Source: Flectonema sp. DT1601
Taxonomy: Eukaryota
DNA length: 46,574 bases
Reading direction: 5' to 3'
NCBI GenBank assembly: GCA_964019425.1
Contig: OZ025797.1
Location: 1,364,001-1,410,574, forward strand
In this document: positions 30,000-45,900 of the stretch, in pieces
Position numbering within the stretch: position 1 is the stretch's first letter
Layout: each line of letters starts with the position of its first letter
Notes under the pieces: model-generated
The model's input: only the letters and a program-made list of their open reading frames with translations
What the model was told of the DNA's origin: nothing
Databases searched by the model: none
Translations under genes and position numbers: made by a program

Positions 30000-30914
30000 C
30001 CTTCCATGCTTTGCACCTGTCGAAATAATAAAACTTAAAAACTACACACGCACCAATAACAAGCGATTACACTAGAACGCACGATTGCAAGAACACCCTG
30101 GTTCAAGGTGGCTCGCTGAGGCGGGGTAACTCGAAGTCCGTTTTCGTTGGACTCAGCTCCACCACGGGGTGGAGGGGTGAGGAGGGTGGGCTTCGAAAAC
30201 GTGAGTGTGAGAGAAAGAAGTGATCGAGCTGTATAAAGAATTTCTTTTTGAAAAAATAGAAGGCTAAAGAATATAAAAAATGTCTGTTGTTTTGTTCATT
30301 TTTCCAACTTCGGAATCATACACTTTTCTGTCTGATTCCTTTGATTATTTCTTTCCGCTGCAGACCACCTTATATGTCCACCCATATAGTAAGGTGGTCT
30401 GCAGCTTTGATGGCTTTTAATGTCTGCCCTAAGGCAATCTGCCTCAAGCACATTGATATATGACATGACCTTGAGGCCATGAAGATCCCACAATATCCAA
30501 TTCACCGCTATTCCAAACAATAACACCTCCCCACCCTTTGAGTCATCAACAAACAAACCTCTGCAGTCCTACCACTTTTTCTTTCAGGAAGAATCTTCCT
30601 AGTGCGCTGAACCGCCAGAATCCAACTTGAAAGTTCCTTCTTACCGACAAGGGGATGGTAACATGATCCTGCACCTGTATAGAGCCGTAGTTCAGGCGGT
30701 TTGTGATCCTGCGCATGTACTTCAGGGCAAACCAATACTTCTCGCATGTAGAAGGCGGCCCCCCAGCGATTCAAGCTGTGATGCACTCAAACCTGATAGA
30801 ACACACGTTGAAATCTTCCTCTTAATCTTAGAACCTAAAGAAACGACCTCATCACAGTGAGAGAACGAAACACCCAGAAATTCATAATCCTGCGGCAAGT
30901 TCACTGTGTCACTG
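30000..30914 (-). pseudogene. Decayed YR-retrotransposon fragment (RT C-terminus, RNase H and 3' region) of the same family, inverted
   Basis: Minus-strand YEFLGVSFSH...KIKRKISTCVLSGLSASQLESLGGRLLHA matches YTFLGADFNH...KIRRKISGVNLSNCTASQLESLGGRLVHA. FVDDSKGG and YINVLEA match RNase H motifs. Stops and frameshifts are present. Confidence 0.85.
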
Positions 30915-30945
30915 GCAAACCCGCAAACCCGCAAACCCGCAAACC
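30915..30945 (+). repeat. Short (CCCGCAAA)n tract, left flank of element 1
   Basis: GCAAACCCGCAAACCCGCAAACCCGCAAACC. Confidence 0.95.
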
Positions 30946-31132
30946 TAACTACAGCGGGGAACCGGAACTTCGAAGTACAGCCGTCAGCATCATTTTCTCG
31001 CCATCGTTTGGCGCATCGATACATCCTATCAGAATATATTTCATTTTATTTAGAGCTGTTTAACTCATGTTTACCTTTCCTTTTCTTTCAGCCGACGGGT
31101 TCGACCTATTAAACACTTAAACAAAAAGAAAA
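30946..31132 (+). repeat. Element 1 split direct repeat A1 (187 nt; A2 at 35332-35518)
   Basis: TAACTACAGCGGGG...ACAAAAAGAAAA is duplicated and ends immediately before the gag ATG. Confidence 0.95.
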
Positions 31133-32365
31133 ATGGGTGATACTTATGACTTCGAATTTCCTAACTCATTAGTTACGCTATGGGGAAATACCGGTGAGGA
31201 ACTGCTACCGAGAAGACACATAAATATGCCAGATGTATTGGGTCGGATCCCATGGGCTGATTGGACAAGTGAAGCAGGCAAAATGATGATGATAATGGTG
31301 CTTGCAAGGTGCCTTGGGTGTGATAGAGAAGTAATTCAAGGTATTTCACCGAGAAAGATTGCAATATTAATTGACGCGCTGCGAGGTCGGAATAATTTAA
31401 TTGTTGATAGCATCGCCGAAGCTGTACAGAACGGGACACTAGCAAGCCTTTCTGGGATGCCTCAAGATCCGTTTAGAAAAGTTGAAGCGATTGTAACGAC
31501 AGTTGCAAATAGACAAAGCCAGCAAGACGAGAATCTCACAGGACTGTATCGTAGTACCGCTCAAGAATTTGCGAAGCATGAAGGAGCGATCCGTGCAGTA
31601 AGTAGCGAAGCAGCAAATGCCACGGCCGCCGCGACAACAGCTGTTAAAAGTACCAATGATAGACAAGATTCGCTCGAGTCACGAACGGATGCTTTCGCAA
31701 CAGATGTACTGAATAGGCTGAACAGGCAGTCAAAGCTTATTGAGGAGCAGCAGGAAATGATCTCTAAGCAAGATAAACAAATTGCAAACTTGATGCGGGC
31801 GTCGTACAGATACGTCCACCCAATGAGCGCGCAACCGGCGCCTCGCACGACTGCACCTGAACAGCCGGAGCCAAGGGCTCGGTATGAAGAACCGACTTCC
31901 GCTGAAGAAACAAGAATTCACAATCCAGTCTCGCATACTGTCCGTTCCGTTGCGGAAGACCCTGATAGGTGGATGGAGTACGCAGATGCCAGTAACTTCC
32001 AACTGACGGAATTAATTCGAGAGTTGCGAACATGGGTTCCTAGCAAGAAAGGGGATCTGCAAGATGGGATGGAGGCGGTGATCGGTGCGATCGAAGTCAT
32101 CTTGCATCCGGAACGGGACGCTGAAGACGCTGTGCTTGCCCTTGCCGACAGCTTGCAGGTATTAAGGTGTAAGGCAAGGGATGGATGGAAGGCGGCTGAA
32201 GCTTTTAAAGGTGAACTCTGGAGGGAACAGAATGTTGCCCCACGTTATGCGAAAGCATGGCGGGCGTCTAGCACAGCTAAGGTGAAGTCAAACTACGCTG
32301 CGCGGAAAGAAGTCTCTAGAGGTTCAAAAAACGAAGCTTCAAAGGGCGGCAGGTCCCATCAATGA
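31133..32365 (+). CDS. Gag-like ORF1 (coiled-coil) of element 1
   Basis: First ORF after the A repeat, 410 aa, central coiled-coil and basic C-terminus; position equivalent to gag in YR elements. Confidence 0.8.
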   Translation: MGDTYDFEFPNSLVTLWGNTGEELLPRRHINMPDVLGRIPWADWTSEAGKMMMIMVLARCLGCDREVIQGISPRKIAILIDALRGRNNLIVDSIAEAVQNGTLASLSGMPQDPFRKVEAIVTTVANRQSQQDENLTGLYRSTAQEFAKHEGAIRAVSSEAANATAAATTAVKSTNDRQDSLESRTDAFATDVLNRLNRQSKLIEEQQEMISKQDKQIANLMRASYRYVHPMSAQPAPRTTAPEQPEPRARYEEPTSAEETRIHNPVSHTVRSVAEDPDRWMEYADASNFQLTELIRELRTWVPSKKGDLQDGMEAVIGAIEVILHPERDAEDAVLALADSLQVLRCKARDGWKAAEAFKGELWREQNVAPRYAKAWRASSTAKVKSNYAARKEVSRGSKNEASKGGRSHQ

Positions 32366-35070
32366 AAAGAACGCAAGTGGTTGGGGACGGGCGCACCAGC
32401 CACGCGAAAGTTAAAATGGCGCCGAAATTACCAGAAAAGTCCATTGTCCGGGTTGCAACCGACTTTTCCTACTACCCAAGAGACCCAACCGGAGCTGCCT
32501 ATTCTGACGAGGGAAATTTTAAACCATCTTGGGAAGAAAGACCGAACTCGCTCTGCACATACAGAGGACGGCGTCAGCGCGGAAGACGCTTCGAAGAAGC
32601 TGGCCGACGTGGTCGGGAAGATGTGGGCAGCGAGTACATCGGCGAAGAGACGAAACCTCTGGGCAAGACTCTTATCGTGGGCGGAAGTGAACAGCTTGCC
32701 AGTAAACGCGGAAACCGCTGTCTTATTCGTCCTTGCCACGAGGGTGAAACCACAAGGGCTACTTCAGTATGCAAAGTCCCTATCAGCAATCATGGAGTGT
32801 CTGGGAATGGACAATCGACAGCTACTAACTCTTGCCACCGCGCTACGAGCAGACGGCGCAGCTATTCCGACAAAGCAAGCACGGCCAATTACAAGGGAGG
32901 CTCTCATGGCCTGGGCGGGGTCATCATCGGACGAACTATGGCTGGCAACAATGATCTGCTGGAAGACAGCCTCAAGATGGGGCGAGGTTCAGGCACTCAC
33001 GTCGGAGCAATTCATTCGAGTGGGGAGGGAGGAAGTGATCATCGACTGGCTCAGCACGCCGAAGCTTCGATCAGCAAATCCATTCGTCCCGTCACGTTGG
33101 ACTGTGATACGGGGGAGCATGACGGGAGAGATCTGGTTGCTTTTAAAGGACAAGATTCCATTCGGGGCACTCACAAACAGAACAACAGAAATGTTGGATC
33201 GGATGTGGGGAAGGGATCCGAACATGAAGGGATTTACAGCACACTCGATAAAGCGCGGCGCAGCAACAGTACTTTACGAAAACCTTGCAAAGGGAGCGGA
33301 CTTACCGGAGCACATTATCTCTCGGACCCTGAAGCATGCGGAGAAGGAGACAGGGATATCATCAACATCGCTGAGGTACGGGGGTGCGCCAGCCGACATG
33401 GCAGTTGCTCTACAGACTTGGAAAGCCACCCAGCTCTTGTAAAACATGCACCGCATAGCATCTCGAGAAGGGGCCAGCGGACGAGGCTACCTGTCACAGC
33501 GGAAGAGAAGGCATCACCGCTTCATGTTTCTTCTATAAAACTAATGAATGTTGACGGGCTTCGAGGGAGGCTGAACGACTCGGCAAGGGTGCGGTTTGAT
33601 AGTGTCTGGGATATGGTATTCCCAAGGCAAACACCACCTTCGCGAAGCAGCACACACTCGAAACACTCAACTCTCCAGCCTAGCCATGCTGACGAACTGG
33701 TTAGTCGTTCTATCGCACGCCATGCTGAAGCAGGGGGGGTAATGCAAAATGTGCCGTTCACTGTTGTTGAGGAGAAGGCTGAGGGCTTACGCCAGCGATT
33801 CATACTCTGGACAAAGGGACTGAACGACTGGGGCGAGGGTACTGGGTACCAAGCCGCCGTTCCACTGAAGCACATCTCAGCTTATCTTGGTGCTGTCAAG
33901 CAGGGGTGCGCCACAACTCGTGACTTCAGAACAGGATTCTTTGCGATTGAAATTCCAACATATGCAAGACATCTCTTCAGGTTCCAAGATAGCTCTGGAA
34001 GATGGTTCGAGATGCAACGACTACCGATGGGACATATTGGCGCCCCGGAACTAATGCACACGCTCGCCGCATCCGCTGCAGGACATCCCGACTACGTTAG
34101 AAGTGACATTGCCGTGCACTCCGTTGGTATTGACATCTTTATTGACAATATAAGGTACACAGGGGAGCGGAAGCATATTCTCGATGCGACGACAGTGCTT
34201 GATGAGACTGCTTCGGGTATGTCTATTACATGGAAGGCTTCCGACTCACATACTGCTGCGACAACCTACACGTTCCTCGGGGCGGACTTTAATCATGAGC
34301 TTCGTACGGTAAGGGCTTCTGAGAAAATTCGACGCAAGATAAGTGGTGTGAATCTTTCCAACTGCACAGCTTCACAGCTCGAGTCACTCGGAGGAAGACT
34401 TGTTCACGCAAGCGCAATTGCAGGCGTTCCGATGGGTCAGTTCTGGTATGCAGTGAAGTTCCTTCGAAGGCTTGTCAACGGTCTCAATAGGGGGACCCGC
34501 CGTCCAGAAGCGAATGTTAACATCCCGCCGTCAGTTACCGCACAACTCTCTGCATGGTGCACTGCGGCTCTCAAGCAACAGACGATCTTCCAGCATGATA
34601 GCAGAAATTCAGTTACAACGTTCATCGACGCTTCTATGACGGGATGCGGCGGCGTTATTATTGATGACTCAACAGCTGAAATTATTATCCTCGGCGGCTC
34701 CTGGACGCCATCAGAAGCACGCCTCCACATCAACGTTCTCGAATCTCTTGCATTATCTAAGACGCTTTCTCAGCTTCCCGTAAGATATAAGGGTGGCACC
34801 CTATCACTCTGGATCGATAACACTTCTGTTGTTGGTGCACTTCGAAAGAAACTCTGTGCTAGGTCAGCAGACTTAAACAAGAATGTCGTTCTTTCTTCTA
34901 TAATATTCAAGAACCTCCAGCTCGATGTTAACATCGGATGGGTCGCGTCAGCTAACAATCCAGCTGACATCCCATCACGCCTCCCAGAACACAAAATCTC
35001 ATCGGCATCAACACTGCATACTGTCGAACTTGCGCTGCGGAGGTTTATTACAAGCGACGGGGTGGAGTGA
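32362..35070 (+). CDS. Reverse transcriptase-RNase H ORF of element 1; N-terminal ~360 codons overprint the YR
   Basis: RT motifs TRDFRTGFF, RLPMG, FIDNI, TFLG; DIRS-type RNase H motifs FIDAS, HINVLE, IDNTS, NPADIPSR. Confidence 0.92.
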   Translation: MKRTQVVGDGRTSHAKVKMAPKLPEKSIVRVATDFSYYPRDPTGAAYSDEGNFKPSWEERPNSLCTYRGRRQRGRRFEEAGRRGREDVGSEYIGEETKPLGKTLIVGGSEQLASKRGNRCLIRPCHEGETTRATSVCKVPISNHGVSGNGQSTATNSCHRATSRRRSYSDKASTANYKGGSHGLGGVIIGRTMAGNNDLLEDSLKMGRGSGTHVGAIHSSGEGGSDHRLAQHAEASISKSIRPVTLDCDTGEHDGRDLVAFKGQDSIRGTHKQNNRNVGSDVGKGSEHEGIYSTLDKARRSNSTLRKPCKGSGLTGAHYLSDPEACGEGDRDIINIAEVRGCASRHGSCSTDLESHPALVKHAPHSISRRGQRTRLPVTAEEKASPLHVSSIKLMNVDGLRGRLNDSARVRFDSVWDMVFPRQTPPSRSSTHSKHSTLQPSHADELVSRSIARHAEAGGVMQNVPFTVVEEKAEGLRQRFILWTKGLNDWGEGTGYQAAVPLKHISAYLGAVKQGCATTRDFRTGFFAIEIPTYARHLFRFQDSSGRWFEMQRLPMGHIGAPELMHTLAASAAGHPDYVRSDIAVHSVGIDIFIDNIRYTGERKHILDATTVLDETASGMSITWKASDSHTAATTYTFLGADFNHELRTVRASEKIRRKISGVNLSNCTASQLESLGGRLVHASAIAGVPMGQFWYAVKFLRRLVNGLNRGTRRPEANVNIPPSVTAQLSAWCTAALKQQTIFQHDSRNSVTTFIDASMTGCGGVIIDDSTAEIIILGGSWTPSEARLHINVLESLALSKTLSQLPVRYKGGTLSLWIDNTSVVGALRKKLCARSADLNKNVVLSSIIFKNLQLDVNIGWVASANNPADIPSRLPEHKISSASTLHTVELALRRFITSDGVE
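32366..33442 (+). CDS. Tyrosine recombinase of element 1 (in the gag frame, open from the gag UGA; start uncertain)
   Basis: Catalytic-type motifs KTASRWGEV (R), AHSIKRGAA (H..R), LKH (H), SLRYG (Y). Confidence 0.9.
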   Translation, partial: KERKWLGTGAPATRKLKWRRNYQKSPLSGLQPTFPTTQETQPELPILTREILNHLGKKDRTRSAHTEDGVSAEDASKKLADVVGKMWAASTSAKRRNLWARLLSWAEVNSLPVNAETAVLFVLATRVKPQGLLQYAKSLSAIMECLGMDNRQLLTLATALRADGAAIPTKQARPITREALMAWAGSSSDELWLATMICWKTASRWGEVQALTSEQFIRVGREEVIIDWLSTPKLRSANPFVPSRWTVIRGSMTGEIWLLLKDKIPFGALTNRTTEMLDRMWGRDPNMKGFTAHSIKRGAATVLYENLAKGADLPEHIISRTLKHAEKETGISSTSLRYGGAPADMAVALQTWKATQLL

Positions 35071-35329
35071 GGCAGGCCAACCGGTGCCGCTACTCGGACT
35101 GCTCACTCACATGGCTTTCTGCCACGCTCAGCCGATAGCGACCACCACCTGCGGTCTACTTACCTCACTTCGTGAAAAGAATTTGTGAACTCTTATAGTT
35201 TAATTTCTCTATCCTTCCTAGTGATAGACGAGCTACTTAGTTTTATCCATAGTTTCATGTTTTACTATTACATTTCTTCTACTCTTATCTTTCCTTCCTT
35301 TCTTTCAGGCTGTACAGGAGTTATGGTTC
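35071..35329 (+). repeat. Element 1 split direct repeat B1 (259 nt; B2 at 35538-35796)
   Basis: GGCAGGCCAACCGG...TTATGGTTC is duplicated and starts right after the RT stop codon. Confidence 0.95.
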
Positions 35330-35796
35330 CCTAACTACAGCGGGGAACCGGAACTTCGAAGTACAGCCGTCAGCATCATTTTCTCGCCATCGTTTGGCGC
35401 ATCGATACATCCTATCAGAATATATTTCATTTTATTTAGAGCTGTTTAACTCATGTTTACCTTTCCTTTTCTTTCAGCCGACGGGTTCGACCTATTAAAC
35501 ACTTAAACAAAAAGAAAACCCACCCACCGACCCCCTCGGCAGGCCAACCGGTGCCGCTACTCGGACTGCTCACTCACATGGCTTTCTGCCACGCTCAGCC
35601 GATAGCGACCACCACCTGCGGTCTACTTACCTCACTTCGTGAAAAGAATTTGTGAACTCTTATAGTTTAATTTCTCTATCCTTCCTAGTGATAGACGAGC
35701 TACTTAGTTTTATCCATAGTTTCATGTTTTACTATTACATTTCTTCTACTCTTATCTTTCCTTCCTTTCTTTCAGGCTGTACAGGAGTTATGGTTC

Positions 35797-37086
35797 CCCG
35801 CAAACCCGCAAACCCGCAAACCCGCAAACCCGCAAACCCGCAAACCCGCAAACCCGCAAACCCGCAAACCCGCAAACCCGCAAACCCGCAAACCCGCAAA
35901 CCCGCAAACCCGCAAACCCGCAAACCCGCAAACCCGCAAACCCGCAAACCCGCAAACCCGCAAACCCGCAAACCCGCAAACCCGCAAACCCGCAAACCCG
36001 CAAACCCGCAAACCCGCAAACCCGCAAACCCGCAAACCCGCAAACCCGCAAACCCGCAAACCCGCAAACCCGCAAACCCGCAAACCCGCAAACCCGCAAA
36101 CCCGCAAACCCGCAAACCCGCAAACCCGCAAACCCGCAAACCCGCAAACCCGCAAACCCGCAAACCCGCAAACCCGCAAACCCGCAAACCCGCAAACCCG
36201 CAAACCCGCAAACCCGCAAACCCGCAAACTCGCAAACCCGCAAACCCGCAAACCCGCAAACCCGCAAACCCGCAAACCCGCAAACCCGCAAACCCGCAAA
36301 CCCGCAAACCCGCAAACCCGCAAACCCGCAAACCCGCAAACCCGCAAACCCGCAAACCCGCAAACCCGCAAACCCGCAAACCCGCAAACCCGCAAACCCG
36401 CAAACCCGCAAACCCGCAAACCCGCAAACCCGCAAACCCGCAAACCCGCAAACCCGCAAACCCGCAAACCCGCAAACCCGCAAACCCGCAAACCCGCAAA
36501 CCCGCAAACCCGCAAACCCGCAAACCCGCAAACCCGCAAACCCGCAAACCCGCAAACCCGCAAACCCGCAAACCCGCAAACCCGCAAACCCGCAAACCCG
36601 CAAACCCGCAAACCCGCAAACCCGCAAACCCGCAAACCCGCAAACCCGCAAACCCGCAAACCCGCAAACCCGCAAACCCGCAAACCCGCAAACCCGCAAA
36701 CCCGCAAACCCGCAAACCCGCAAACCCGCAAACCCGCAAACCCGCAAACCCGCAAACCCGCAAACCCGCAAACCCGCAAACCCGCAAACCCGCAAACCCG
36801 CAAACCCGCAAACCCGCAAACCCGCAAACCCGCAAACCCGCAAACCCGCAAACCCGCAAACCCGCAAACCCGCAAACCCGCAAACCCGCAAACCCGCAAA
36901 CCCGCAAACCCGCAAACCCGCAAACCCGCAAACCCGCAAACCCGCAAACCCGCAAACCCGCAAACCCGCAAACCCGCAAACCCGCAAACCCGCAAACCCG
37001 CAAACCCGCAAACCCGCAAACCCGCAAACCCGCAAACCCGCATACCCGCAAACCCGCAAACCCGCAAACCCGCAAACCCGCAAACC
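35797..37086 (+). repeat. (CCCGCAAA)n telomere-like octamer array, about 161 units
   Basis: Perfect 8-bp tandem repeat with two single-base variants seen (36230, 37043). Confidence 0.99.
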
Positions 37087-37298
37087 AACACTCAGACTGG
37101 GAACTGCACAAAAGGCAAGTGAAGTACGATATACTCTTATAATATTTTCCTTTTCATTGATCAATATTAAATGTTGTTTAAGTATTATTTCTGTTCTCTT
37201 GTCTTTATTTCAGAATTATCATTTCACTGTTTCTCTTATCATTATTTCATTGTACTCATTTATTCAGGCTAGGAAGGGGTCTTAACGCAAAGCGTTTT
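37087..37298 (+). repeat. Element 2 split direct repeat A1 (212 nt; A2 at 42459-42670)
   Basis: AACACTCAGACTGGG...GCAAAGCGTTTT is duplicated. Confidence 0.95.
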
Positions 37299-37306
37299 AA
37301 GAAAAT

Positions 37307-39343
37307 ATGCCGGATCATTATTATGATTTTTCGGTGCCCGCTAGTATCGCCGGGAAGGCGAAGGCGATACTAGGGGAGGTGGGGCGCATGAAGGTGTCCC
37401 TGGAGGCAAGGAACCGCAGGTTCCAACAAGCGATGGGGCTGTCCGGTGGGGACAGCATTTGGATGCCCACCTGTCGGGAGGACAGCAATTCATCCCGCAG
37501 AGCTGACAACGACAAGTTGTTAGCTCTGTGTCTCGACATCCCGGTGGGGTTGGCGAGAACGCTGTCGGCACGGACTGTGTTCGTGCTGTTGACGGGCCTG
37601 GTCGAGGTCAACGCCGATGCGGTGAAGGAGAGGATGAGAAGGCTGGGGACGATGACGGGCTCGGCACCCTCGGTTCCGTCGCCGATGACGGGGGGGAGGT
37701 CGACCCTCATGGTGATGGAGGTGGACTCGATGGAACAGGTGCCACCGCCGGTTTTCGCGGAACCGGTTTCGGGAACGAACCCCAGTTTGGAGGGGTTGGC
37801 TCGCGCGGGAGGCATGGCCTACCGGGAGCTGAAGGGTCAGGCTGTGGCCCACCAATCGGTGACGGAGCAGTTGGCTGCTCGCCAAGCACAACACACGACG
37901 GCCGGGGAGAACCTGGAAGTCACCGTGAGCCGGGTGGCCCAGGTGATCAACGAGCAAGCCCGGAGGCAGGTGAAGGCGGAAGAACACACCGCCATGGTTG
38001 AAGGTGCGGCCGAAGAGGCTTTCAACTCCGTAGCGGATAGGCAGGAAGAGCTCGGGGAGGCTGTGATGCAGATGGCGAAGGAAAAGGCCAGACAGGACGG
38101 GGTGCTGAAGACCGAGCAGCAGAAGCGGGAGGAGTTGCGGCAGCGACTCGAGCTGCAGCAAAACCTGCTGGACCAACAGAGGGAGGAGCAGGAATTACAG
38201 AAGCAGCAGCAACAAAAGCAAGAACTGCAGAGTCAATTGGCACAAGAACAGCAACAGAAGCAGATTCAACAACAGCAAGCTCAGCAACAACAGTTCCAAG
38301 AGGATCAACGGAAGTTGGAGGAGCAGTTAAGGCTTCGGGACGAGCTGCTGAAGCAACAACAAGTGCAACAACAGGAACAGCAACGCCAGCTGGACCAGCA
38401 CAAGCTGGCGGAACAAGCGAAGAGCAACGAGCAGCAGCTTCAGCAGCAGCAGCTCCAGCAACAGCAGCTGCTGCAACAGGAGCAGAACAAGTTTCAGCAA
38501 CAGGAACAACGGAGGTTGGAGGAGAGTCTGAACGCACAGCAACAGCAGATGACTCAACAACAGCAGGCGCTGCAGCAGCAGGCGCTACAGCAGCAGGGTC
38601 TGCTGCTTCAACAACGGCAAGCACCGACAGCGCAGGACGGGCTGAGCACGGTGTTATCGCAGATGGCGACAACGCTCCACCACCTAGTACCGAAGACGAA
38701 GGTGGTCGCTTTCCCGGCAGGTATGTGCAGGGGATCGAAGGTGAAGCGCGGGTCGGACAAGGGATTCGTGGTGGATCTCGACGGTGTGACCGGGGAGGTG
38801 GTCCTGGGATTGATTGGTAGGCGGGAGTCATTCTTTGTGCTCACGCCTGAACAATTTAAAGAAGAAGGTTGGCTGTTGGCCCATTGGAATGCGGAGGTGC
38901 CTGCGGTGCAGGTGCCATTGGAACAGGCAGCGGCGCAGCATACGTTGTGGGCTGGCTACGGTGGGCGAGGTGACGTGGAGATGTCCCTCCTCCGGCGGGC
39001 GATCACGGAGAAGTTCGGAGAGGGTGGTTCGCAAGTTGCGAAGCAGATGGTAGGTCTGTTGGCGAAGACGGTGGAGGCGACCATCAACGGTGGGGAGGAA
39101 GTGACCTTAGGGTTGCTTCACGAGATGCTGGAGTTCCAACTGATTCGGGGGGAGCACGGGAGCAGGAGTGGCGACTTGTACCTGAAGGCGCTGGCTGAGA
39201 GCTGGGAGGACCCCACCACCGCTGCGGCGAGGAAGGTAGCGTTGAAGGGTAGCAGGCCAGCCGGTTTGGTGAGGGGGACGACAACGACCGGACAACAGCC
39301 ACAACACTTTCCAAAAAACGGGGGGCGTGGTCGGGGGAATTGA
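37307..39343 (+). CDS. Gag-like ORF1 of element 2 with a long Gln-rich coiled coil
   Basis: 678 aa. N-terminus MPDHYYDFSVPAS resembles MGDTYDFEFPNS of element 1, and LLALCLDIP resembles VLARCLGCD. Confidence 0.8.
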   Translation: MPDHYYDFSVPASIAGKAKAILGEVGRMKVSLEARNRRFQQAMGLSGGDSIWMPTCREDSNSSRRADNDKLLALCLDIPVGLARTLSARTVFVLLTGLVEVNADAVKERMRRLGTMTGSAPSVPSPMTGGRSTLMVMEVDSMEQVPPPVFAEPVSGTNPSLEGLARAGGMAYRELKGQAVAHQSVTEQLAARQAQHTTAGENLEVTVSRVAQVINEQARRQVKAEEHTAMVEGAAEEAFNSVADRQEELGEAVMQMAKEKARQDGVLKTEQQKREELRQRLELQQNLLDQQREEQELQKQQQQKQELQSQLAQEQQQKQIQQQQAQQQQFQEDQRKLEEQLRLRDELLKQQQVQQQEQQRQLDQHKLAEQAKSNEQQLQQQQLQQQQLLQQEQNKFQQQEQRRLEESLNAQQQQMTQQQQALQQQALQQQGLLLQQRQAPTAQDGLSTVLSQMATTLHHLVPKTKVVAFPAGMCRGSKVKRGSDKGFVVDLDGVTGEVVLGLIGRRESFFVLTPEQFKEEGWLLAHWNAEVPAVQVPLEQAAAQHTLWAGYGGRGDVEMSLLRRAITEKFGEGGSQVAKQMVGLLAKTVEATINGGEEVTLGLLHEMLEFQLIRGEHGSRSGDLYLKALAESWEDPTTAAARKVALKGSRPAGLVRGTTTTGQQPQHFPKNGGRGRGN

Positions 39344-42159
39344 ATCCTGGCCGTAAACAAACCCGTAGAGGGCGTCGCGGGAGGAGGGGCGGCAAGTGGG
39401 CCGCGGCCTCTCCTGGTCGGCGCGGTGCCAGCTGGAATGCGACGTGGGTCAACGAGTGTCGTCGCACCGGAACCTTGCGCGAGTACGCAAGAGGGATTCC
39501 GAAAACGAAGATGCGCTGCGCAGGTGGAAGTTCCGTCGGTTTTCGGGAAGGTGGTCCTCGAACACATCCGGAGGGACGATCGACACCGTGGAGACACGAT
39601 GGAAGTAAGGGTGGACCACGACACAGCGTTGGAGCGTCTGGGGGTGGTCGTCGCGTCGATGTGGGCGGACGAAACCTCGTCGAAGCGCAGAAACCTCTGG
39701 GGTCGGTTGGAACAATGGGCGTTGGCTCAGCGTCTGCCAATGTCTGCCGAAACAGCTGCGTTGTTCGTGCTGGCCACAGACGTGAGACCGCAGGGACAGC
39801 TGCAATACGCAAAGGCGCTGTCCGGGATCTACCGGCACCTTGGTCTGGAAAACCAACCGCTCCTCAGCCTGGCAAGCGCGCTGAGGGCAAAAGGGGCGGC
39901 CGTTCCGCGTTCGCAAGCAGTTCCCATGTCAAAGGAGCAGCTGTTGGGTTGGGCGAGAAGTCTAACGGGACGTTTGAGGCTCGCGGCGTTGGTGTGTTGG
40001 AAGTCGGCTTCCCGGTGGGGAGAAGTGCACGTGCTGACGTCGGCGCATTTCGTTCTGGTGGAGGACGCGGAAGTGATCGTGGACTGGGGGACGTCGCCAA
40101 AACACCGGAGAGCAAACCCGTTCGTGCCGTCCCGTTGGGCGGTCTTGCGGGGGGATCTGGTCGGGGAGATCGCAAGCTTGTTTCGGGAGCTGGCTCCTTT
40201 CGATCGGCTGACGGATGTCACCACCGAGCGGTTGGCAGAGTTGTGGCGGGGGACTCCGGGAATGCGGGGTTTTACGGGCCACTCGATAAAACGAGGCGCC
40301 GCCGCGGCTTTGATGCGAGCGATGGCCGAGGGAAGGCTCACAGAAGGGTACCTGGTATCACGACTGTTGAAGCACGCCGAAGACGGAACCAACATCTCTG
40401 CAACAACGATCAGGTATTCGTCGGATTTCGTGGACACCGCCCGAGCGCTGCAAACGTGGAAGGTCACCATCCTGCTGTAGTTGCGGAGGACGTTGACGAC
40501 GAAGGTGAGGCGATGGAAGCGGTGGCGCGGCTGTCTCCGTGCACGACGCACAGCATCATCAGGAGGGGCAAGCGGACAAGACTGCCGTCGACGGCGGAGG
40601 AACGTTCGTCGCCTTTGCATGTGAGTGGCGTTGAGACGATGGATGTTGACGGACTCAGACGTAGGATGACTGATGTTGCGAGGGATAGGTTCGATCAGGT
40701 GTGGAACTTGACCTTTTATCCGGAGGTGGGGAAGTTGAGTCGCTCGTCGTCTACTTCATCTTTCGCTGGGAGGCACGCTGCGGAGTTGCTGAGGAACGGG
40801 ATCGCGCGAGCTGCGAGTGGACCGGGGAGAGCGGTGAACGTTCCATTCACCGTGGTGGAGGAGAAGCCGGAGGGACTGCGGCAGCGGTTCATCCTTTGGA
40901 CGAGGGATGCGAATGGTTGGGCCGAAGAAGCTTACGAAGCTCACGTCCCGCTGTTCCACATCTCAAAATATTTGGATCGGGTTCTGACCGAGGTTGGCTC
41001 GACACGGGATTTCAAGACAGGTTTTTATGCTATTGAAATCCCGGAGGAAGCGAGAGATCTCTTCCGATTCAAGACGACGGAGGGTGAATGGTTCGAGCTG
41101 TGCCGTTTACCGATGGGGCATGTCTGCGCGCCGGAGCTGATGCACTCTTTGGCAGCGGCGGCTGCGGGGGATCCAGCTTACGTGCGACGTCAGTGGGCTG
41201 CCAGGGATGTTGGCGTTGACGTGTTCATCGACAACATTCGGTACACGGGGACGGAAGGCGCGGTGTTGGCGGCGACGGTGAATCTCGATGCTGCGGCGGC
41301 GGATTTCCGTCTTACATGGAAGCCGTCTGACTCGAATACGGCGGTGAGCAAGTACACATTTTTGGGTGTGGACTTTGACCACGAGGCGTCGTCGGTCATG
41401 CCGTCAGCGAAGATCCGGCGGAAGTTGGCGGCGGTGGACTTGTCGTCTGTGACGGCGAGTCAGTTGGAGTCGATGGCTGGGAGGCTGATGCATGCGTCGG
41501 CGATCGCTGCGGCGTCTCCGGGGAAATACTGGTATGCCTTGAAGTTCTTGCGGAGGTTGTCGAACGGTTTGAACCGCGGGGTGAGGCAGGTGCATGATGT
41601 AGTGTCGGTCCCTGTTTCGGTCGCGATGGAGTTGCGCAGTTGGTCGGCTGCCGCTGTGACGAGGAGGGTGGTTGCGCGGGAGCCAGATCAAGATGGGTTC
41701 ACGACGTTCGTGGATGCGTCGTTGAGAGGTTGGGGTGGAGTGGTTGTGAACGACAGGACGGCCGAGGTTACTGTCTTGGGGGATGCGTGGGGTCCTTCGG
41801 AACAGTCGCTCCACATCAATGTTCTCGAGGGGATGGCGTTCAGGAACACGGTCTCGGGGATGCCGGTTTGCTGTGATGGCAAGCGAATGTCCATCTGGAT
41901 CGACAACACGTCAGTCATTGGCGTAGCACGGAAGAAGATGTCAGTCCGATCGCAACGGCTGAACGATGCGGTCGTGCAGGCCATCGATGTGCTGGCAGAC
42001 AGAAAGGTTAGTTTCTGTATTGCTTATGTGAAGTCAGCGCTGAACCCAGCAGACTTGCCATCGAGGGTGGATCCAGGAGTTATAGGCTCATCGGAGCATC
42101 AGCGGGAAGTTGAACTTGCGGTGAGGGCCTTTCTGACTCGCGATGTGGTGGTGGTGTGA
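39340..42159 (+). CDS. Reverse transcriptase-RNase H ORF of element 2; N-terminal part overprints the YR
   Basis: TRDFKTGFY, RLPMG, FIDNI, TFLG; RNase H motifs FVDAS, HINVLE, IDNTS, NPADLPSR. Confidence 0.92.
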   Translation: MNPGRKQTRRGRRGRRGGKWAAASPGRRGASWNATWVNECRRTGTLREYARGIPKTKMRCAGGSSVGFREGGPRTHPEGRSTPWRHDGSKGGPRHSVGASGGGRRVDVGGRNLVEAQKPLGSVGTMGVGSASANVCRNSCVVRAGHRRETAGTAAIRKGAVRDLPAPWSGKPTAPQPGKRAEGKRGGRSAFASSSHVKGAAVGLGEKSNGTFEARGVGVLEVGFPVGRSARADVGAFRSGGGRGSDRGLGDVAKTPESKPVRAVPLGGLAGGSGRGDRKLVSGAGSFRSADGCHHRAVGRVVAGDSGNAGFYGPLDKTRRRRGFDASDGRGKAHRRVPGITTVEARRRRNQHLCNNDQVFVGFRGHRPSAANVEGHHPAVVAEDVDDEGEAMEAVARLSPCTTHSIIRRGKRTRLPSTAEERSSPLHVSGVETMDVDGLRRRMTDVARDRFDQVWNLTFYPEVGKLSRSSSTSSFAGRHAAELLRNGIARAASGPGRAVNVPFTVVEEKPEGLRQRFILWTRDANGWAEEAYEAHVPLFHISKYLDRVLTEVGSTRDFKTGFYAIEIPEEARDLFRFKTTEGEWFELCRLPMGHVCAPELMHSLAAAAAGDPAYVRRQWAARDVGVDVFIDNIRYTGTEGAVLAATVNLDAAAADFRLTWKPSDSNTAVSKYTFLGVDFDHEASSVMPSAKIRRKLAAVDLSSVTASQLESMAGRLMHASAIAAASPGKYWYALKFLRRLSNGLNRGVRQVHDVVSVPVSVAMELRSWSAAAVTRRVVAREPDQDGFTTFVDASLRGWGGVVVNDRTAEVTVLGDAWGPSEQSLHINVLEGMAFRNTVSGMPVCCDGKRMSIWIDNTSVIGVARKKMSVRSQRLNDAVVQAIDVLADRKVSFCIAYVKSALNPADLPSRVDPGVIGSSEHQREVELAVRAFLTRDVVVV
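39344..40480 (+). CDS. Tyrosine recombinase of element 2 (in the gag frame, open from the gag UGA)
   Basis: KSASRWGEV, GHSIKRGAA, LKH, TIRYS; colinear with the element 1 YR. Confidence 0.9.
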   Translation: MLAVNKPVEGVAGGGAASGPRPLLVGAVPAGMRRGSTSVVAPEPCASTQEGFRKRRCAAQVEVPSVFGKVVLEHIRRDDRHRGDTMEVRVDHDTALERLGVVVASMWADETSSKRRNLWGRLEQWALAQRLPMSAETAALFVLATDVRPQGQLQYAKALSGIYRHLGLENQPLLSLASALRAKGAAVPRSQAVPMSKEQLLGWARSLTGRLRLAALVCWKSASRWGEVHVLTSAHFVLVEDAEVIVDWGTSPKHRRANPFVPSRWAVLRGDLVGEIASLFRELAPFDRLTDVTTERLAELWRGTPGMRGFTGHSIKRGAAAALMRAMAEGRLTEGYLVSRLLKHAEDGTNISATTIRYSSDFVDTARALQTWKVTILL

Positions 42160-42456
42160 CGGTGCCAACCTTTCCCCCGGCCGATTTTAGGCCGTGGTCG
42201 AACATGCAATTGTACAAGCATGCGGTGCCGTTTTCCCATTACCCCTTCGTGAATGAGTTGCTTCGTGTTAACTTGGTTCTCCTTTGTCTTTCTCATCATC
42301 ATTTTATTCAGCTGAGAAAATGGGAAAGCTAAGACGACATGAGGCTTATGATGCTAGTATCTTGTTATGTGGTTAATTCGTGTGATTGTTTTTATCAGAC
42401 TCTCCTTTATGACTTTTCCTTTTCAACAGTACTTCACTGAGAATGCCGAGCGGTTC
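42155..42456 (+). repeat. Element 2 split direct repeat B1 (302 nt; B2 at 42688-42989)
   Basis: TGTGACGGTGCCAACC...GAGCGGTTC is duplicated. Confidence 0.95.
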
Positions 42457-42989
42457 CCAACACTCAGACTGGGAACTGCACAAAAGGCAAGTGAAGTACG
42501 ATATACTCTTATAATATTTTCCTTTTCATTGATCAATATTAAATGTTGTTTAAGTATTATTTCTGTTCTCTTGTCTTTATTTCAGAATTATCATTTCACT
42601 GTTTCTCTTATCATTATTTCATTGTACTCATTTATTCAGGCTAGGAAGGGGTCTTAACGCAAAGCGTTTTCCCACCCGCCCTACCCCTGTGACGGTGCCA
42701 ACCTTTCCCCCGGCCGATTTTAGGCCGTGGTCGAACATGCAATTGTACAAGCATGCGGTGCCGTTTTCCCATTACCCCTTCGTGAATGAGTTGCTTCGTG
42801 TTAACTTGGTTCTCCTTTGTCTTTCTCATCATCATTTTATTCAGCTGAGAAAATGGGAAAGCTAAGACGACATGAGGCTTATGATGCTAGTATCTTGTTA
42901 TGTGGTTAATTCGTGTGATTGTTTTTATCAGACTCTCCTTTATGACTTTTCCTTTTCAACAGTACTTCACTGAGAATGCCGAGCGGTTC

Positions 42990-45900
42990 CCCGCAAACCC
43001 GCAAACCCGCAAACCCGCAAACCCGCAAACCCGCAAACCCGCAAACCCGCAAACCCGCAAACCCGCAAACCCGCAAACCCGCAAACCCGCAAACCCGCAA
43101 ACCCGCAAACCCGCAAACCCGCAAACCCGCAAACCCGCAAACCCGCAAACCCGCAAACCCGCAAACCCGCAAACCCGCAAACCCGCAAACCCGCAAACCC
43201 GCAAACCCGCAAACCCGCAAACCCGCAAACCCGCAAACCCGCAAACCCGCAAACCCGCAAACCCGCAAACCCGCAAACCCGCAAACCCGCAAACCCGCAA
43301 ACCCGCAAACCCGCAAACCCGCAAACCCGCAAACCCGCAAACCCGCAAACCCGCAAACCCGCAAACCCGCAAACCCGCAAACCCGCAAACCCGCAAACCC
43401 GCAAACCCGCAAACCCGCAAACCCGCAAACCCGCAAACCCGCAAACCCGCAAACCCGCAAACCCGCAAACCCGCAAACCCGCAAACCCGCAAACCCGCAA
43501 ACCCGCAAACCCGCAAACCCGCAAACCCGCAAACCCGCAAACCCGCAAACCCGCAAACCCGCAAACCCGCAAACCCGCAAACCCGCAAACCCGCAAACCC
43601 GCAAACCCGCAAACCCGCAAACCCGCAAACCCGCAAACCCGCAAACCCGCAAACCCGCAAACCCGCAAACCCGCAAACCCGCAAACCCGCAAACCCGCAA
43701 ACCCGCAAACCCGCAAACCCGCAAACCCGCAAACCCGCAAACCCGCAAACCCGCAAACCCGCAAACCCGCAAACCCGCAAACCCGCAAACCCGCAAACCC
43801 GCAAACCCGCAAACCCGCAAACCCGCAAACCCGCAAACCCGCAAACCCGCAAACCCGCAAACCCGCAAACCCGCAAACCCGCAAACCCGCAAACCCGCAA
43901 ACCCGCAAACCCGCAAACCCGCAAACCCGCAAACCCGCAAACCCGCAAACCCGCAAACCCGCAAACCCGCAAACCCGCAAACCCGCAAACCCGCAAACCC
44001 GCAAACCCGCAAACCCGCAAACCCGCAAACCCGCAAACCCGCAAACCCGCAAACCCGCAAACCCGCAAACCCGCAAACCCGCAAACCCGCAAACCCGCAA
44101 ACCCGCAAACCCGCAAACCCGCAAACCCGCAAACCCGCAAACCCGCAAACCCGCAAACCCGCAAACCCGCAAACCCGCAAACCCGCAAACCCGCAAACCC
44201 GCAAACCCGCAAACCCGCAAACCCGCAAACCCGCAAACCCGCAAACCCGCAAACCCGCAAACCCGCAAACCCGCAAACCCGCAAACCCGCAAACCCGCAA
44301 ACCCGCAAACCCGCAAACCCGCAAACCCGCAAACCCGCAAACCCGCAAACCCGCAAACCCGCAAACCCGCAAACCCGCAAACCCGCAAACCCGCAAACCC
44401 GCAAACCCGCAAACCCGCAAACCCGCAAACCCGCAAACCCGCAAACCCGCAAACCCGCAAACCCGCAAACCCGCAAACCCGCAAACCCGCAAACCCGCAA
44501 ACCCGCAAACCCGCAAACCCGCAAACCCGCAAACCCGCAAACCCGCAAACCCGCAAACCCGCAAACCCGCAAACCCGCAAACCCGCAAACCCGCAAACCC
44601 GCAAACCCGCAAACCCGCAAACCCGCAAACCCGCAAACCCGCAAACCCGCAAACCCGCAAACCCGCAAACCCGCAAACCCGCAAACCCGCAAACCCGCAA
44701 ACCCGCAAACCCGCAAACCCGCAAACCCGCAAACCCGCAAACCCGCAAACCCGCAAACCCGCAAACCCGCAAACCCGCAAACCCGCAAACCCGCAAACCC
44801 GCAAACCCGCAAACCCGCAAACCCGCAAACCCGCAAACCCGCAAACCCGCAAACCCGCAAACCCGCAAACCCGCAAACCCGCAAACCCGCAAACCCGCAA
44901 ACCCGCAAACCCGCAAACCCGCAAACCCGCAAACCCGCAAACCCGCAAACCCGCAAACCCGCAAACCCGCAAACCCGCAAACCCGCAAACCCGCAAACCC
45001 GCAAACCCGCAAACCCGCAAACCCGCAAACCCGCAAACCCGCAAACCCGCAAACCCGCAAACCCGCAAACCCGCAAACCCGCAAACCCGCAAACCCGCAA
45101 ACCCGCAAACCCGCAAACCCGCAAACCCGCAAACCCGCAAACCCGCAAACCCGCAAACCCGCAAACCCGCAAACCCGCAAACCCGCAAACCCGCAAACCC
45201 GCAAACCCGCAAACCCGCAAACCCGCAAACCCGCAAACCCGCAAACCCGCAAACCCGCAAACCCGCAAACCCGCAAACCCGCAAACCCGCAAACCCGCAA
45301 ACCCGCAAACCCGCAAACCCGCAAACCCGCAAACCCGCAAACCCGCAAACCCGCAAACCCGCAAACCCGCAAACCCGCAAACCCGCAAACCCGCAAACCC
45401 GCAAACCCGCAAACCCGCAAACCCGCAAACCCGCAAACCCGCAAACCCGCAAACCCGCAAACCCGCAAACCCGCAAACCCGCAAACCCGCAAACCCGCAA
45501 ACCCGCAAACCCGCAAACCCGCAAACCCGCAAACCCGCAAACCCGCAAACCCGCAAACCCGCAAACCCGCAAACCCGCAAACCCGCAAACCCGCAAACCC
45601 GCAAACCCGCAAACCCGCAAACCCGCAAACCCGCAAACCCGCAAACCCGCAAACCCGCAAACCCGCAAACCCGCAAACCCGCAAACCCGCAAACCCGCAA
45701 ACCCGCAAACCCGCAAACCCGCAAACCCGCAAACCCGCAAACCCGCAAACCCGCAAACCCGCAAACCCGCAAACCCGCAAACCCGCAAACCCGCAAACCC
45801 GCAAACCCGCAAACCCGCAAACCCGCAAACCCGCAAACCCGCAAACCCGCAAACCCGCAAACCCGCAAACCCGCAAACCCGCAAACCCGCAAACCCGCAA

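Follow-up and report, generated by a model that had tools for sequence, protein, structure and literature searches.

A candidate programmed −1 frameshift site at the gag 3′ end of two VIPER/TATE-like retrotransposons

Two tyrosine recombinase (YR) retrotransposons lie in the 46,574-nucleotide stretch of DNA analyzed here (the window), and each carries, close to the gag 3′ terminus, an A_AAA_AAC heptamer that is probably best explained as a programmed −1 ribosomal frameshift site. The original prediction held that slippage at this heptamer would produce a Gag-RT transframe polyprotein. Its central step, a −1 shift into the RT/RNase H frame, gains support from the openness of that frame, from improbable codons at the site and from relatives of the elements, but the product would not simply be Gag-RT. 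Between Gag and the RT core there are about 375-430 residues of unconserved, overprinted sequence that come from the −1 frame of the YR gene.

Two complete elements within an octamer array

Both elements are complete, young VIPER/TATE-like retrotransposons (DIRS order) whose ORFs run in the order gag-like, YR and RT/RNase H, with integrase and protease absent. Their features in the window are listed below.

30944 to 35798, + strand: element 1, complete VIPER/TATE-like YR retrotransposon with split direct repeats and with CCCGCAAA repeats at both flanks
31133 to 32365, + strand: element 1 gag-like ORF, first ATG to TGA stop, no Pfam match
32320 to 35070, + strand: element 1 −1 frame ORF, opening after TAG 32317-32319, with about 375 linker codons that overprint YR, then RT/RNase H
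32326 to 32332, + strand: element 1 candidate slippery heptamer A_AAA_AAC, in gag phase (gag frame 31121 to 32365)
32363 to 32365, + strand: element 1 gag stop TGA, next base A, overlapped by a −1 frame ATG at 32362-32364
32366 to 33442, + strand: element 1 probable YR ORF, in the gag frame right after the stop, first Met at codon 86
35792 to 37086, + strand: CCCGCAAA octamer array between the elements, the target sequence
37085 to 42987, + strand: element 2, complete, diverged, of the same kind, with split direct repeats
37307 to 39343, + strand: element 2 gag-like ORF
39253 to 42159, + strand: element 2 −1 frame ORF, overprinted linker and then RT/RNase H
39313 to 39319, + strand: element 2 candidate slippery heptamer A_AAA_AAC, in gag phase (gag frame 37301 to 39343)
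39341 to 39343, + strand: element 2 gag stop TGA, next base A, preceding base T (TTGA)
39344 to 40480, + strand: element 2 probable YR ORF, in the gag frame right after the stop
42985 to 46574, + strand: CCCGCAAA octamer array, continuing to the window end

The split direct repeats are arranged in both elements with A1 at the 5′ end and B1, A2 and B2 at the 3′ end, the pattern described for VIPER-like elements in the available text of PMC6681497 and PMC12278014. Repeat copies are 100% identical within element 1 (A1 30944-31132 and A2 35330-35518; B1 35071-35331 and B2 35538-35798) and within element 2 (A1 37085-37298 and A2 42457-42670; B1 42155-42454 and B2 42688-42987). Together with several near-identical genomic copies, these identical repeats are signs of recent activity. 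The two elements share 44% identity in RT and 52% in YR, and they sit at the same position within the CCCGCAAA repeat array. There is no target-site duplication: the octamer phase is continuous over both insertions, with a left flank ending in CAAACC and a right flank beginning with CGCAAACC. A literature text search for the CCCGCAAA octamer as a published telomere repeat returned only unrelated papers. Scanning the window against Rfam gave zero family matches, and the remaining window ORFs had no match in Pfam.

The heptamer and the overprinted −1 frame

When the gag frames were re-read, TCA AAA AAC was found at 32324-32332 in element 1 and CCA AAA AAC at 39311-39319 in element 2, each in the X_XXY_YYZ phase, as originally predicted. 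From AAC to the gag TGA there are 10 codons in element 1 and 7 in element 2. The two gags are dissimilar, as had been claimed, with no tblastn match between them, and the short gag/RT overlap contains the heptamer in both elements. From the heptamer into RT/RNase H, the −1 frame is free of stops to 35070 in element 1 and to 42159 in element 2. The further claim that the element 2 RT frame lacks a starting ATG also stands: 198 nt 3′ of the heptamer are without a −1 frame ATG, and the first one is at 39511.

A word-indexed database search for gag homologues retrieved near-identical copies only for both elements; S-K-N is kept in 5/5 members of the element 1 gag cluster, and P-K-N in 4/6 members of the element 2 cluster, the remaining two being truncated or frameshifted. 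A full HMMER search with gag gave five matches, of which the informative full-length gag is P0089. This protein is 42% identical to the element 2 gag and again has K-N seven residues before its C-terminus. The other matches are two short fragments (P0091 and P0092), a 91%-identical fragment of 201 aa (P0090) and an unrelated sequence (P0093).

The heptamer is notable for its place and phase, not for its count. Within the coding regions (3.9 kb in element 1 and 4.9 kb in element 2), it is the sole A run of at least 6, and T runs of at least 6 are absent. With x-K-N fixed and the codon usage of the respective element applied, the probability of the A_AAA_AAC codons is 0.041 in element 1 and 0.0097 in element 2, where Lys codons are 45 AAG to 3 AAA and the heptamer takes the rare AAA. 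Two other measures were less striking. Synonymous permutation of gag gave a probability of 0.12 (element 1) and 0.26 (element 2) for any canonical in-phase heptamer in the overlap, and the window holds two copies of the 9-mer CAAAAAACG, where 1.98 would be expected over its whole length.

Downstream RNA folding agreed with the earlier statement that no convincing shared stimulatory structure could be identified, being indistinguishable from background in both elements. Minimum free energy z-scores downstream of the heptamers were −0.62, +0.85, −0.53 and −1.31, and ranks of the downstream windows among all same-size windows were 0.74, 0.076 and 0.24 as fractions in element 1 and 0.30, 0.30 and 0.03 in element 2. 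In element 2 the best candidate, a 9-bp stem that includes four G-U pairs, lies 8 nt 3′ of the heptamer; element 1 has no comparable stem within 5-9 nt of its heptamer. In the published C. mellificae TATE record, read by hand, an 11-bp perfect stem begins 7 nt after the heptamer.

Directly 3′ of each gag TGA, in the gag frame, we found a conserved ORF of 358 codons in element 1 and 378 in element 2, a probable YR gene, that the original prediction had missed. It had no match in Pfam or NCBIfam, and a profile search against the PDB gave P2-type integrases at E 0.56-1 only. The predicted model was poor (pLDDT 57.7); in a Foldseek search with it, Cre recombinase chains filled each of the first 25 rows (E 3e-3 to 3.5e-2, TM about 0.25). 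Its atlas neighbors were Phage_integrase clusters with scores of 0.97-0.98, and motifs resembling R...HxxR...Y are visible by eye in both ORFs.

The RT frame overprints the entire YR ORF in both elements. Across the whole YR ORF, the −1 frame contains 0 stops in element 1, in element 2 and in the metagenome relative L002, against 9.2, 8.2 and 10.4 expected from synonymous-codon permutation of YR; 0 stops arose in 0/20000, 1/20000 and 0/20000 permutations, respectively. The +1 frame has 16, 13 and 16 stops, matching expectation. When only the first 100 YR codons were considered, the open −1 frame had a probability of 0.10, 0.06 and 0.14. That the −1 frame is kept open across YR suggests that ribosomes making RT likely enter at the gag end. 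An alignment of 16 long RT-ORF N-termini (14 database proteins and the two window ORFs), which is unreliable upstream of the YR core and in which heptamers are not placeable, showed the −1 frame open over the YR core in 16/16.

We found no extra sequence constraint in the overprinted frame by codon comparison of elements 1 and 2. Third-position identity was 0.372 where the frames overlap and 0.352 in the part coding for RT alone, and identical codons at identical residues numbered 57/162 and 97/280, respectively. We read this as a −1 frame that is kept open only, and we do not count the lack of constraint against translation, since an open but unconserved frame fits a conduit translated from upstream. 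Beyond the overlap, Pfam matches to RT/RNase H were weak (RVT_1, E 0.026; RT_RNaseH_2, E 0.052). Among the 71 RT/RNase H homologues, several carry PF00078, PF17917 or PF17919, and the best RT matches are from Diplonema papillatum.

Relatives and alternative routes to RT

Conservation in relatives, which the original prediction had proposed as a check, favors the heptamer, with in-phase sites in VIPER and TATE and with L002 as an exception. The kinetoplastid frames were read by hand, with no machine check, from sequences published with PMC6681497. In this reading, an in-phase X_XXY_YYZ heptamer precedes a TGA-A stop by 7-14 codons in 10/10 VIPER records; YR follows that stop without a change of frame, and the −1 frame is open. 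The heptamer is A_AAA_AAC in 6/6 T. cruzi records, A_AAA_AAC, G_GGA_AAC or A_AAA_AAA in C. fasciculata, and G_GGA_AAC in B. saltans. In 3/4 TATE records, gag ends in TAA, A_AAA_AAC stands 0-10 codons ahead of it and ORF2 occupies the −1 frame; the same three records have an in-phase U_UUA_AAY at the junction of ORF2 to RT. Among relatives the type of heptamer thus varies, and its pattern and phase are retained.

Scanning metagenomes for DNA of relatives gave two loci, one of them informative, and a search of a viral sequence collection for relatives found none. In L002 (RT identity 32%), the final 33 codons of gag contain no canonical heptamer and only two in-phase G_GGG_GGG runs; G_GGG_GGG is not known to be slippery. 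In D. papillatum, 19 of the 71 matches are short RT ORFs (505-570 aa) beginning close to the YR end, and the layout with the RT frame across the whole of YR is not used by every lineage. Diplonema gene models bridge junctions of the gag/RT type by apparent introns. The DNA contig set X1 covers 32511-35023 only, outside the gag/RT junction. The K-K-H motif, present in P0048, was rejected, as it is not kept in the relative P0046.

Could RT/RNase H be made separately, unfused to Gag? Termination followed by reinitiation, or direct initiation, at a −1 frame start-like codon overlapping the gag stop (NUGA) would yield such a protein from 32362 in element 1, and we regard this as unlikely. The required ATGA overlap is found in element 1 (ATG 32362-32364, TGA 32363-32365) and L002 and, by hand reading, in T. 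cruzi VIPER and C. fasciculata CfaC1_27, and L002 is without a canonical heptamer. However, only 4/8 lineages have A before TGA; three have G and element 2 has T. The overlapping AUG restart is not conserved, the sequence being TTGA in element 2 and GTGA in three published VIPER lineages. Element 2 would offer no −1 frame ATG until 39511. Reinitiation also leaves unexplained the rare AAA codon, the sole A6 run and a heptamer pattern that is retained among relatives while its type changes. A UGGGA-type motif, the upstream reinitiation motif of caliciviruses, was not seen by eye at the junctions of element 1, element 2 or L002. Translation of the RT frame from its own mRNA (through an internal spliced-leader acceptor or promoter), by internal initiation or by leaky scanning, with the heptamer incidental, appears less probable still. 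In its favor, euglenozoan mRNAs are trans-spliced (available text of PMC10161547), two −1 frame ATGs in element 1 (32362 and 32416) precede the first frame-0 ATG (32621), and many D. papillatum RT ORFs begin at their own Met near the YR end. Yet polypyrimidine-AG tracts are concentrated in the terminal repeats. In element 2, both a polypyrimidine tract between 37237 and 40750 and an early −1 frame ATG are missing, and in element 1 the one tract close to the junction (32463-32477) comes after the two ATGs. Conservation of an in-phase heptamer across VIPER and TATE would also be left unexplained.

Slippage during transcription or reverse transcription could instead add one base at the homopolymer in some RNAs and so place RT in the gag frame. 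A purine run is present at all sites (A6 in both window elements, A7 and A8 in two C. fasciculata copies, and two G7 runs in L002), but the G_GGA_AAC sites of B. saltans and of one C. fasciculata copy contain no long run, strict X_XXY_YYZ phase is unnecessary for transcript slippage, and A6 is a short run for slippage by cellular RNA polymerase II; we give this route very little weight. Least probable of all, in our judgment, is that the heptamers arose by chance, with ribosomes arriving at RT through a late shift or restart within YR and the open upstream −1 frame meaningless. A canonical heptamer in the overlap is by itself not very improbable by synonymous permutation (0.12 and 0.26 above), but the −1 frame is stop-free in 3/3 elements, each with P ≤ 1/20000, and the probabilities over the first 100 YR codons alone are those given above. 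The same heptamer in both elements, its improbable codons and the equivalent sites in relatives likewise argue against chance.

Predicted products and comparison with known systems

With programmed −1 frameshifting as the preferred reading, a minority of the ribosomes on gag would move back by one base at AAA-AAC and go on in the −1 frame from codon 32332-32334 in element 1 or 39319-21 in element 2. The shifted ribosomes would cross about 375-430 codons overprinting the YR gene and then translate RT/RNase H, giving a predicted Gag-linker-RT/RH product of about 1312 (element 1) or about 1617 (element 2) residues. The unshifted ribosomes would end at the TGA 10 (element 1) or 7 (element 2) codons on and release Gag. 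Readthrough, as a second recoding event, probably takes place at this junction as well, since the gag stop, always TGA followed by A, precedes an in-frame recombinase; some ribosomes would probably read through UGA-A to make Gag-YR. We infer slippage and its efficiency, readthrough and all protein products from the sequence. A broader and still tentative reading, to which we give somewhat less than even weight, is that VIPER-like elements from kinetoplastids and diplonemids have in common a single compact, three-way recoding hub at the gag end, consisting of an in-phase heptamer, 4-14 codons and UGA-A. A single mRNA might then give Gag by termination, Gag-recombinase by UGA readthrough and Gag-linker-RT/RNase H by −1 frameshifting, with the RT frame over the recombinase serving merely as an open conduit unconstrained in sequence.

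The window elements resemble VIPER in their gag-YR-RT/RH order, in their split direct repeats (A1 ... B1-A2-B2) and in the module at the gag end (hand-read in 10/10 records as above). In T. cruzi VIPER, an RT ORF of ~950 aa overlaps a YR of ~340 aa; the corresponding window ORFs are 916/968 and 358/378 aa. The RT motifs FTVVEEK, RLPMG and WIDNIRL occur both in the C. fasciculata VIPER record and in the window. VIPER is kinetoplastid, whereas the window host is diplonemid-like, as judged from the best RT matches. The window elements also differ from VIPER in having a gag without a zinc knuckle and with no detectable homology beyond its own lineage, and in their insertion at a fixed position of the CCCGCAAA array, which is closer to TATE. 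According to the available text of PMC6681497, TATE of Leishmania and other kinetoplastids occupies a fixed position in a short telomere-type repeat, often with several in a row. TATE likewise has A_AAA_AAC at the gag end and an RT frame that overprints the recombinase domain from a slippery heptamer just upstream. Unlike in the window, TATE ORF2 (a long N-terminal region plus YR) is itself displaced by −1 relative to gag and RT by −1 again, which makes two shifts in a row, and gag ends in TAA. With YR in the gag frame behind TGA-A, a single shift would suffice in the window.

Gag-Pol frameshifting is textbook knowledge for retroviruses and LTR elements, and the MMTV and HTLV gag-pro sites use the A_AAA_AAC −1 frameshift heptamer. 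At these gag-pro/pol sites, a minority of Gag ribosomes yield a Gag-polymerase fusion, which sets stoichiometry. The window sites share the heptamer and differ in lacking a protease and a recognized downstream pseudoknot or hairpin, in a shifted frame that crosses ~1.1 kb of another gene before RT, and in a leaky-looking stop with an in-frame enzyme gene 7-10 codons past the slip site. Extensive overlap of pol and YR ORFs, as in the window, is frequent in the order of DIRS1-like elements (available text of PMC3266345 and PMC6681497); DIRS1-like elements differ from those in the window by their inverted terminal repeats and methyltransferase domain. The description of this overlap in the available text of PMC3266345 contains no translation mechanism, and the words "slippery" and "readthrough" have zero occurrences in the PMC6681497 text. 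Our literature search found no paper that ties a slippery site to tyrosine-recombinase retrotransposons or gives their translation strategy, and a prior mention in Lorenzi 2006 or PMC15765 is possible.

If the site works as proposed, it would explain how RT is produced in VIPER, TATE and their diplonemid relatives and would provide a reason for the overlap of the RT ORF with the recombinase gene. It would also offer a simple signature for annotating intact copies, namely a heptamer, a few codons and UGA-A. The junction would likewise be a rare case of frameshifting and readthrough within about 30 nt. Should the shared-hub reading be true, the long pol/YR overlaps noted without a mechanism in the DIRS order would be explained.

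Two VIPER/TATE-like elements in octamer arrays

The two retrotransposons in the window, elements 1 and 2, are each bounded by perfect split direct repeats. VIPER and TATE of kinetoplastids are described, in PMC12278014 and PMC6681497, with the same repeat pattern, the order gag - tyrosine recombinase (YR) - RT/RNase H (RH), and overlapping YR and RT, and both elements resemble them in each of these respects.

Features of elements 1 and 2 (frames and sites from sequence reading)
30944-35798, forward strand: element 1, repeats A1 ... B1-A2-B2
31121..32365, forward strand: element 1 gag frame, stop to stop
32324-32332, forward strand: element 1 site codons TCA AAA AAC, 10 codons from AAC to the stop
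32363-32365, forward strand: element 1 gag stop TGA, then A (32363-32366)
32320-35070, forward strand: element 1 -1 frame, opening to end
37085-42987, forward strand: element 2, repeats A1 ... B1-A2-B2
37301..39343, forward strand: element 2 gag frame, stop to stop
39311-39319, forward strand: element 2 site codons CCA AAA AAC, 7 codons from AAC to the stop
39341-39343, forward strand: element 2 gag stop TGA, then A (39341-39344)
39253-42159, forward strand: element 2 -1 frame, opening to end

Arrays of the octamer CCCGCAAA enclose both elements (30916-30943, 35792-37086, and 42985-46574). Both are inserted at the same octamer position (left flank ...CAAACC, right flank CGCAAACC...) and in the same orientation with the repeat phase unbroken, which implies that there was no target-site duplication and that two lineages with an RT identity of only 44-53% have one common target site. 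This insertion recalls that of TATE into the telomeric hexamers of Leishmania braziliensis, as described in PMC6681497; a literature text search gave nothing relevant on this octamer being a published telomere repeat. The terminal repeats are 100% identical inside each element and several near-identical gag copies are found on other contigs, so both elements are young and probably active. One piece of a third RT/RH gene, on the minus strand at 30477-30940, is 38-48% identical to the two elements, opposite in orientation, and adjoins the short octamer stretch at the element 1 5′ end. Elsewhere, positions 1-22632 hold six tandem copies (98.9-99.9% identical) of a 3661-bp unit, each with one 704-codon open frame lacking a Pfam match.

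The slippery heptamer at the end of gag

The original prediction held that an A_AAA_AAC site fuses Gag to the RT frame by a -1 frameshift. Upon analysis of both junctions, we found the sequence and coordinates as claimed: the heptamers lie in the X_XXY_YYZ phase of gag, the -1 frame is open from the gag end into RT/RH, and element 2 lacks an early ATG in that frame. RT/RH forms the C-terminal half of each -1 frame ORF, with weak Pfam matches. A protein search yielded 71 homologues, several with RVT_1 or RT_RNaseH domains; all of the named ones belong to Diplonema papillatum. The RT motif C box reads F-I-D-N-I-R-Y, not Y-x-D-D (about 34190-34210 and 41270-41290), and is [FW]-[IV]-D-[NG] in all aligned homologues, W-I-D-N-I-R-L in published C. 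fasciculata VIPER, and I-D-N in TATE. The superfamily as a whole lacks the second catalytic Asp found in classical RTs, a point with no discussion in the available part of PMC6681497.

In both elements the heptamer is the sole run of six or more A in the coding region, and there are no runs of six or more T. Lys codons of element 2 beyond the overlap are AAG 45 times and AAA 3 times, and the probability of the A_AAA_AAC codons is 0.0097 given P-K-N in element 2 and 0.041 given S-K-N in element 1. Counting against the site, any canonical in-phase heptamer within the overlap is not rare by permutation (0.12 and 0.26), and the shared 9-mer CAAAAAACG has 2 copies in the window where about two are expected by chance. 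Hence, the argument lies in place, phase, identity, and codon choice rather than in counts. Folding energies downstream of the heptamers were ordinary for these GC-rich elements and gave no convincing stimulatory structure, in agreement with the original prediction, which had found no convincing shared one. By hand reading, C. mellificae TATE has an 11-bp perfect stem from 7 nt past its heptamer, suggesting that such structure may be present in some lineages.

The probable recombinase gene and the frame overprinted on it

While the heptamer and RT frame of the predicted layout stood, ORF reading revealed an overlooked ORF where the gag frame resumes directly past its stop: 358 codons at 32366..33442 in element 1 and 378 codons at 39344..40480 in element 2. 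These ORFs are 52% identical, above the 44% of the RT match. Their nearest neighbors in a protein atlas are Phage_integrase clusters (score 0.97-0.98), and the first 25 Foldseek rows for a low-confidence model (pLDDT 57.7) are Cre recombinase chains with weak scores; Pfam, NCBIfam, and PDB profile searches gave no significant match. We interpret this ORF as the YR that such elements are expected to carry, in which case the "RT ORF" spans all of the YR gene in the -1 frame.

In the two window elements, the metagenome relative L002, and ten hand-read VIPER sequences, 13 records in all (8 lineages, with six T. cruzi copies counted once), gag terminates at a TGA whose next base is A, and its frame remains open beyond this stop. 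Past the stop, YR residues can be recognized in the two window elements, L002, and the T. cruzi and C. fasciculata records. YR has no conserved start codon: its conserved N-terminal region begins upstream of the first Met (codon 86 in element 1; far upstream in L002, whose first Met comes no earlier than about residue 205), and relatives have other residues in place of the Met of "MWA". Furthermore, the Diplonema gene model P0056 runs from gag tail to YR unbroken. The combination of TGA-A and an in-frame YR without a conserved start suggests programmed readthrough and, with layout as the sole basis, we infer that UGA-A readthrough would give Gag-YR.

Each YR ORF was permuted among its synonymous codons, with protein and codon usage fixed, and stops were counted in the two alternative frames.

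Stops in the alternative frames of YR
Element 1: -1 frame, 9.2 expected, 0 observed, P(0 stops) 0/20000; +1 frame, 16 observed
Element 2: -1 frame, 8.2 expected, 0 observed, P(0 stops) 1/20000; +1 frame, 13 observed
L002: -1 frame, 10.4 expected, 0 observed, P(0 stops) 0/20000; +1 frame, 16 observed

The +1 counts match expectation in all three. No extra sequence conservation of the overprinted frame was seen between elements 1 and 2: the overlap scores 0.372 in third-position identity and the RT-only part 0.352, and identical codons at identical residues number 57/162 and 97/280, respectively. An open frame without extra conservation implies selection that preserves openness and is indifferent to the encoded sequence, as expected if ribosomes must traverse the YR region to reach RT. 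Over just the first 100 codons of YR, the -1 frame would stay open with a probability of 0.10, 0.06, and 0.14 (element 1, element 2, and L002), which places the entry point near the gag end.

Measured upstream from the conserved S/APLH motif, the extension is at least 285 residues in 29 of the 71 RT homologues, 129-199 in 7, and fewer than about 100 in 19, the motif string being absent in 16. When 14 long ORFs from the database were aligned to the window pair, all of them carried the same overprinted extension over the YR core. Many D. papillatum relatives have short RT ORFs starting near the YR end, so this layout is not universal. Five D. papillatum models (P0041, P0043, P0056, P0069, and P0009) join gag, YR, and RT in single proteins with frame jumps at the junctions, and one fused model omits the YR end bearing the catalytic Tyr. 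These jumps look like artificial introns bridging recoding sites.

Candidate recoding sites in relatives and other possible routes to RT

Scans for relative DNA returned two metagenome loci and no viral ones. L002 (32% RT identity) has the same layout as the window elements, with a zinc-knuckle gag tail, TGA-A (100-103), YR in the gag frame, and a -1 frame open throughout. Its gag end is the sole clear miss among relatives, having no canonical heptamer; two in-phase G_GGG_GGG runs (69-75 and 81-87) lie in a duplicated 12-base motif that takes the place of A_AAA_AAC. Full HMMER searching with the C-terminal domain of element 2 gag recovered one diverged full-length gag, the database protein P0089 (42% identity), in whose otherwise different tail K-N again stands seven residues from the end.

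We also searched the kinetoplastid sequences of PMC6681497 for heptamer motifs and read the records. Frames were assigned manually, with the 60-base line layout, gag ATG, neighboring stop, and recognizable YR/RT residues as guides, and were not machine-checked. An in-phase slippery heptamer lies shortly before the gag stop in 10 of 10 VIPER records.

Heptamers in published VIPER records (hand-read)
T. cruzi, 6/6 records: A_AAA_AAC (TCA AAA AAC), 9 codons before the stop
C. fasciculata CfaC1_27: A_AAA_AAC, 11 codons before the stop
C. fasciculata CfaC1_21:236683: G_GGA_AAC, 14 codons before the stop
C. fasciculata CfaC1_21:75947: A_AAA_AAA, 7 codons before the stop
B. saltans: G_GGA_AAC, 8 codons before the stop

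The -1 frame is open in the VIPER records translated there (one T. cruzi and three C. fasciculata). Among the 4 TATE records (Additional file 11), likewise hand-read, gag ends in xxA AAA AAC TAA in L. braziliensis and C. mellificae, and T. theileri has CCA AAA AAC ten codons ahead of TAA; the B. saltans record is given as a single ORF in PMC6681497. ORF2 is the -1 frame of gag in L. braziliensis and T. theileri, where it was followed, and the frame arithmetic of C. mellificae is consistent. Within ORF2 of these three, an in-phase U_UUA_AAC or U_UUA_AAT also lies shortly before the recombinase domain, and in L. braziliensis the RT frame, a further step back, opens at U_UUA_AAY and overprints that domain. 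A second L. braziliensis heptamer follows 27 nt later, with 13 bases equal to window 32324-32336. TATE thus appears to use two successive -1 shifts, from gag to ORF2 at the A_AAA_AAC next to TAA and from ORF2 to RT at U_UUA_AAY. By this hand reading, the heptamer is conserved in other family members (VIPER 10/10, TATE 3/4), and while its type varies (A_AAA_AAC, A_AAA_AAA, G_GGA_AAC, and U_UUA_AAY), pattern, phase, and place are constant, as they should be for a functional slip site.

RT could instead be started by termination-reinitiation at a -1 frame ATG overlapping the gag stop, as found in element 1, L002, T. cruzi VIPER, and one C. fasciculata copy. However, this overlap occurs in only 4 of the 8 lineages: TGA is preceded by G in three others and by T in element 2, which has no early ATG. 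Against a separate trans-spliced mRNA for the RT frame, polypyrimidine-AG tracts cluster in the terminal repeats, shortly before the gag ATG, and none lies near the element 2 junction. Long tracts of this kind, in repeat A a little ahead of each gag ATG (31068-31090, 37142-37237, and their copies in the 3′ repeats) and at the B-A junctions, resemble spliced-leader acceptors of the element mRNA. Transcript slippage on a purine run fits the A6-A8 and G7 runs but does not fit the G_GGA_AAC sites.

Taken together, the phase, codon choice, open -1 frame, and equivalent sites in relatives support and widen the Gag-RT frameshift reading, and the heptamer is most likely the programmed -1 frameshift site of a VIPER-like retrotransposon. 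We found no description of such a recoding module in the literature searched, although some earlier reports beyond that search might mention it. As read from these sequences, the heptamer seems to belong to a conserved recoding module common to kinetoplastid VIPER and, in modified form, TATE.
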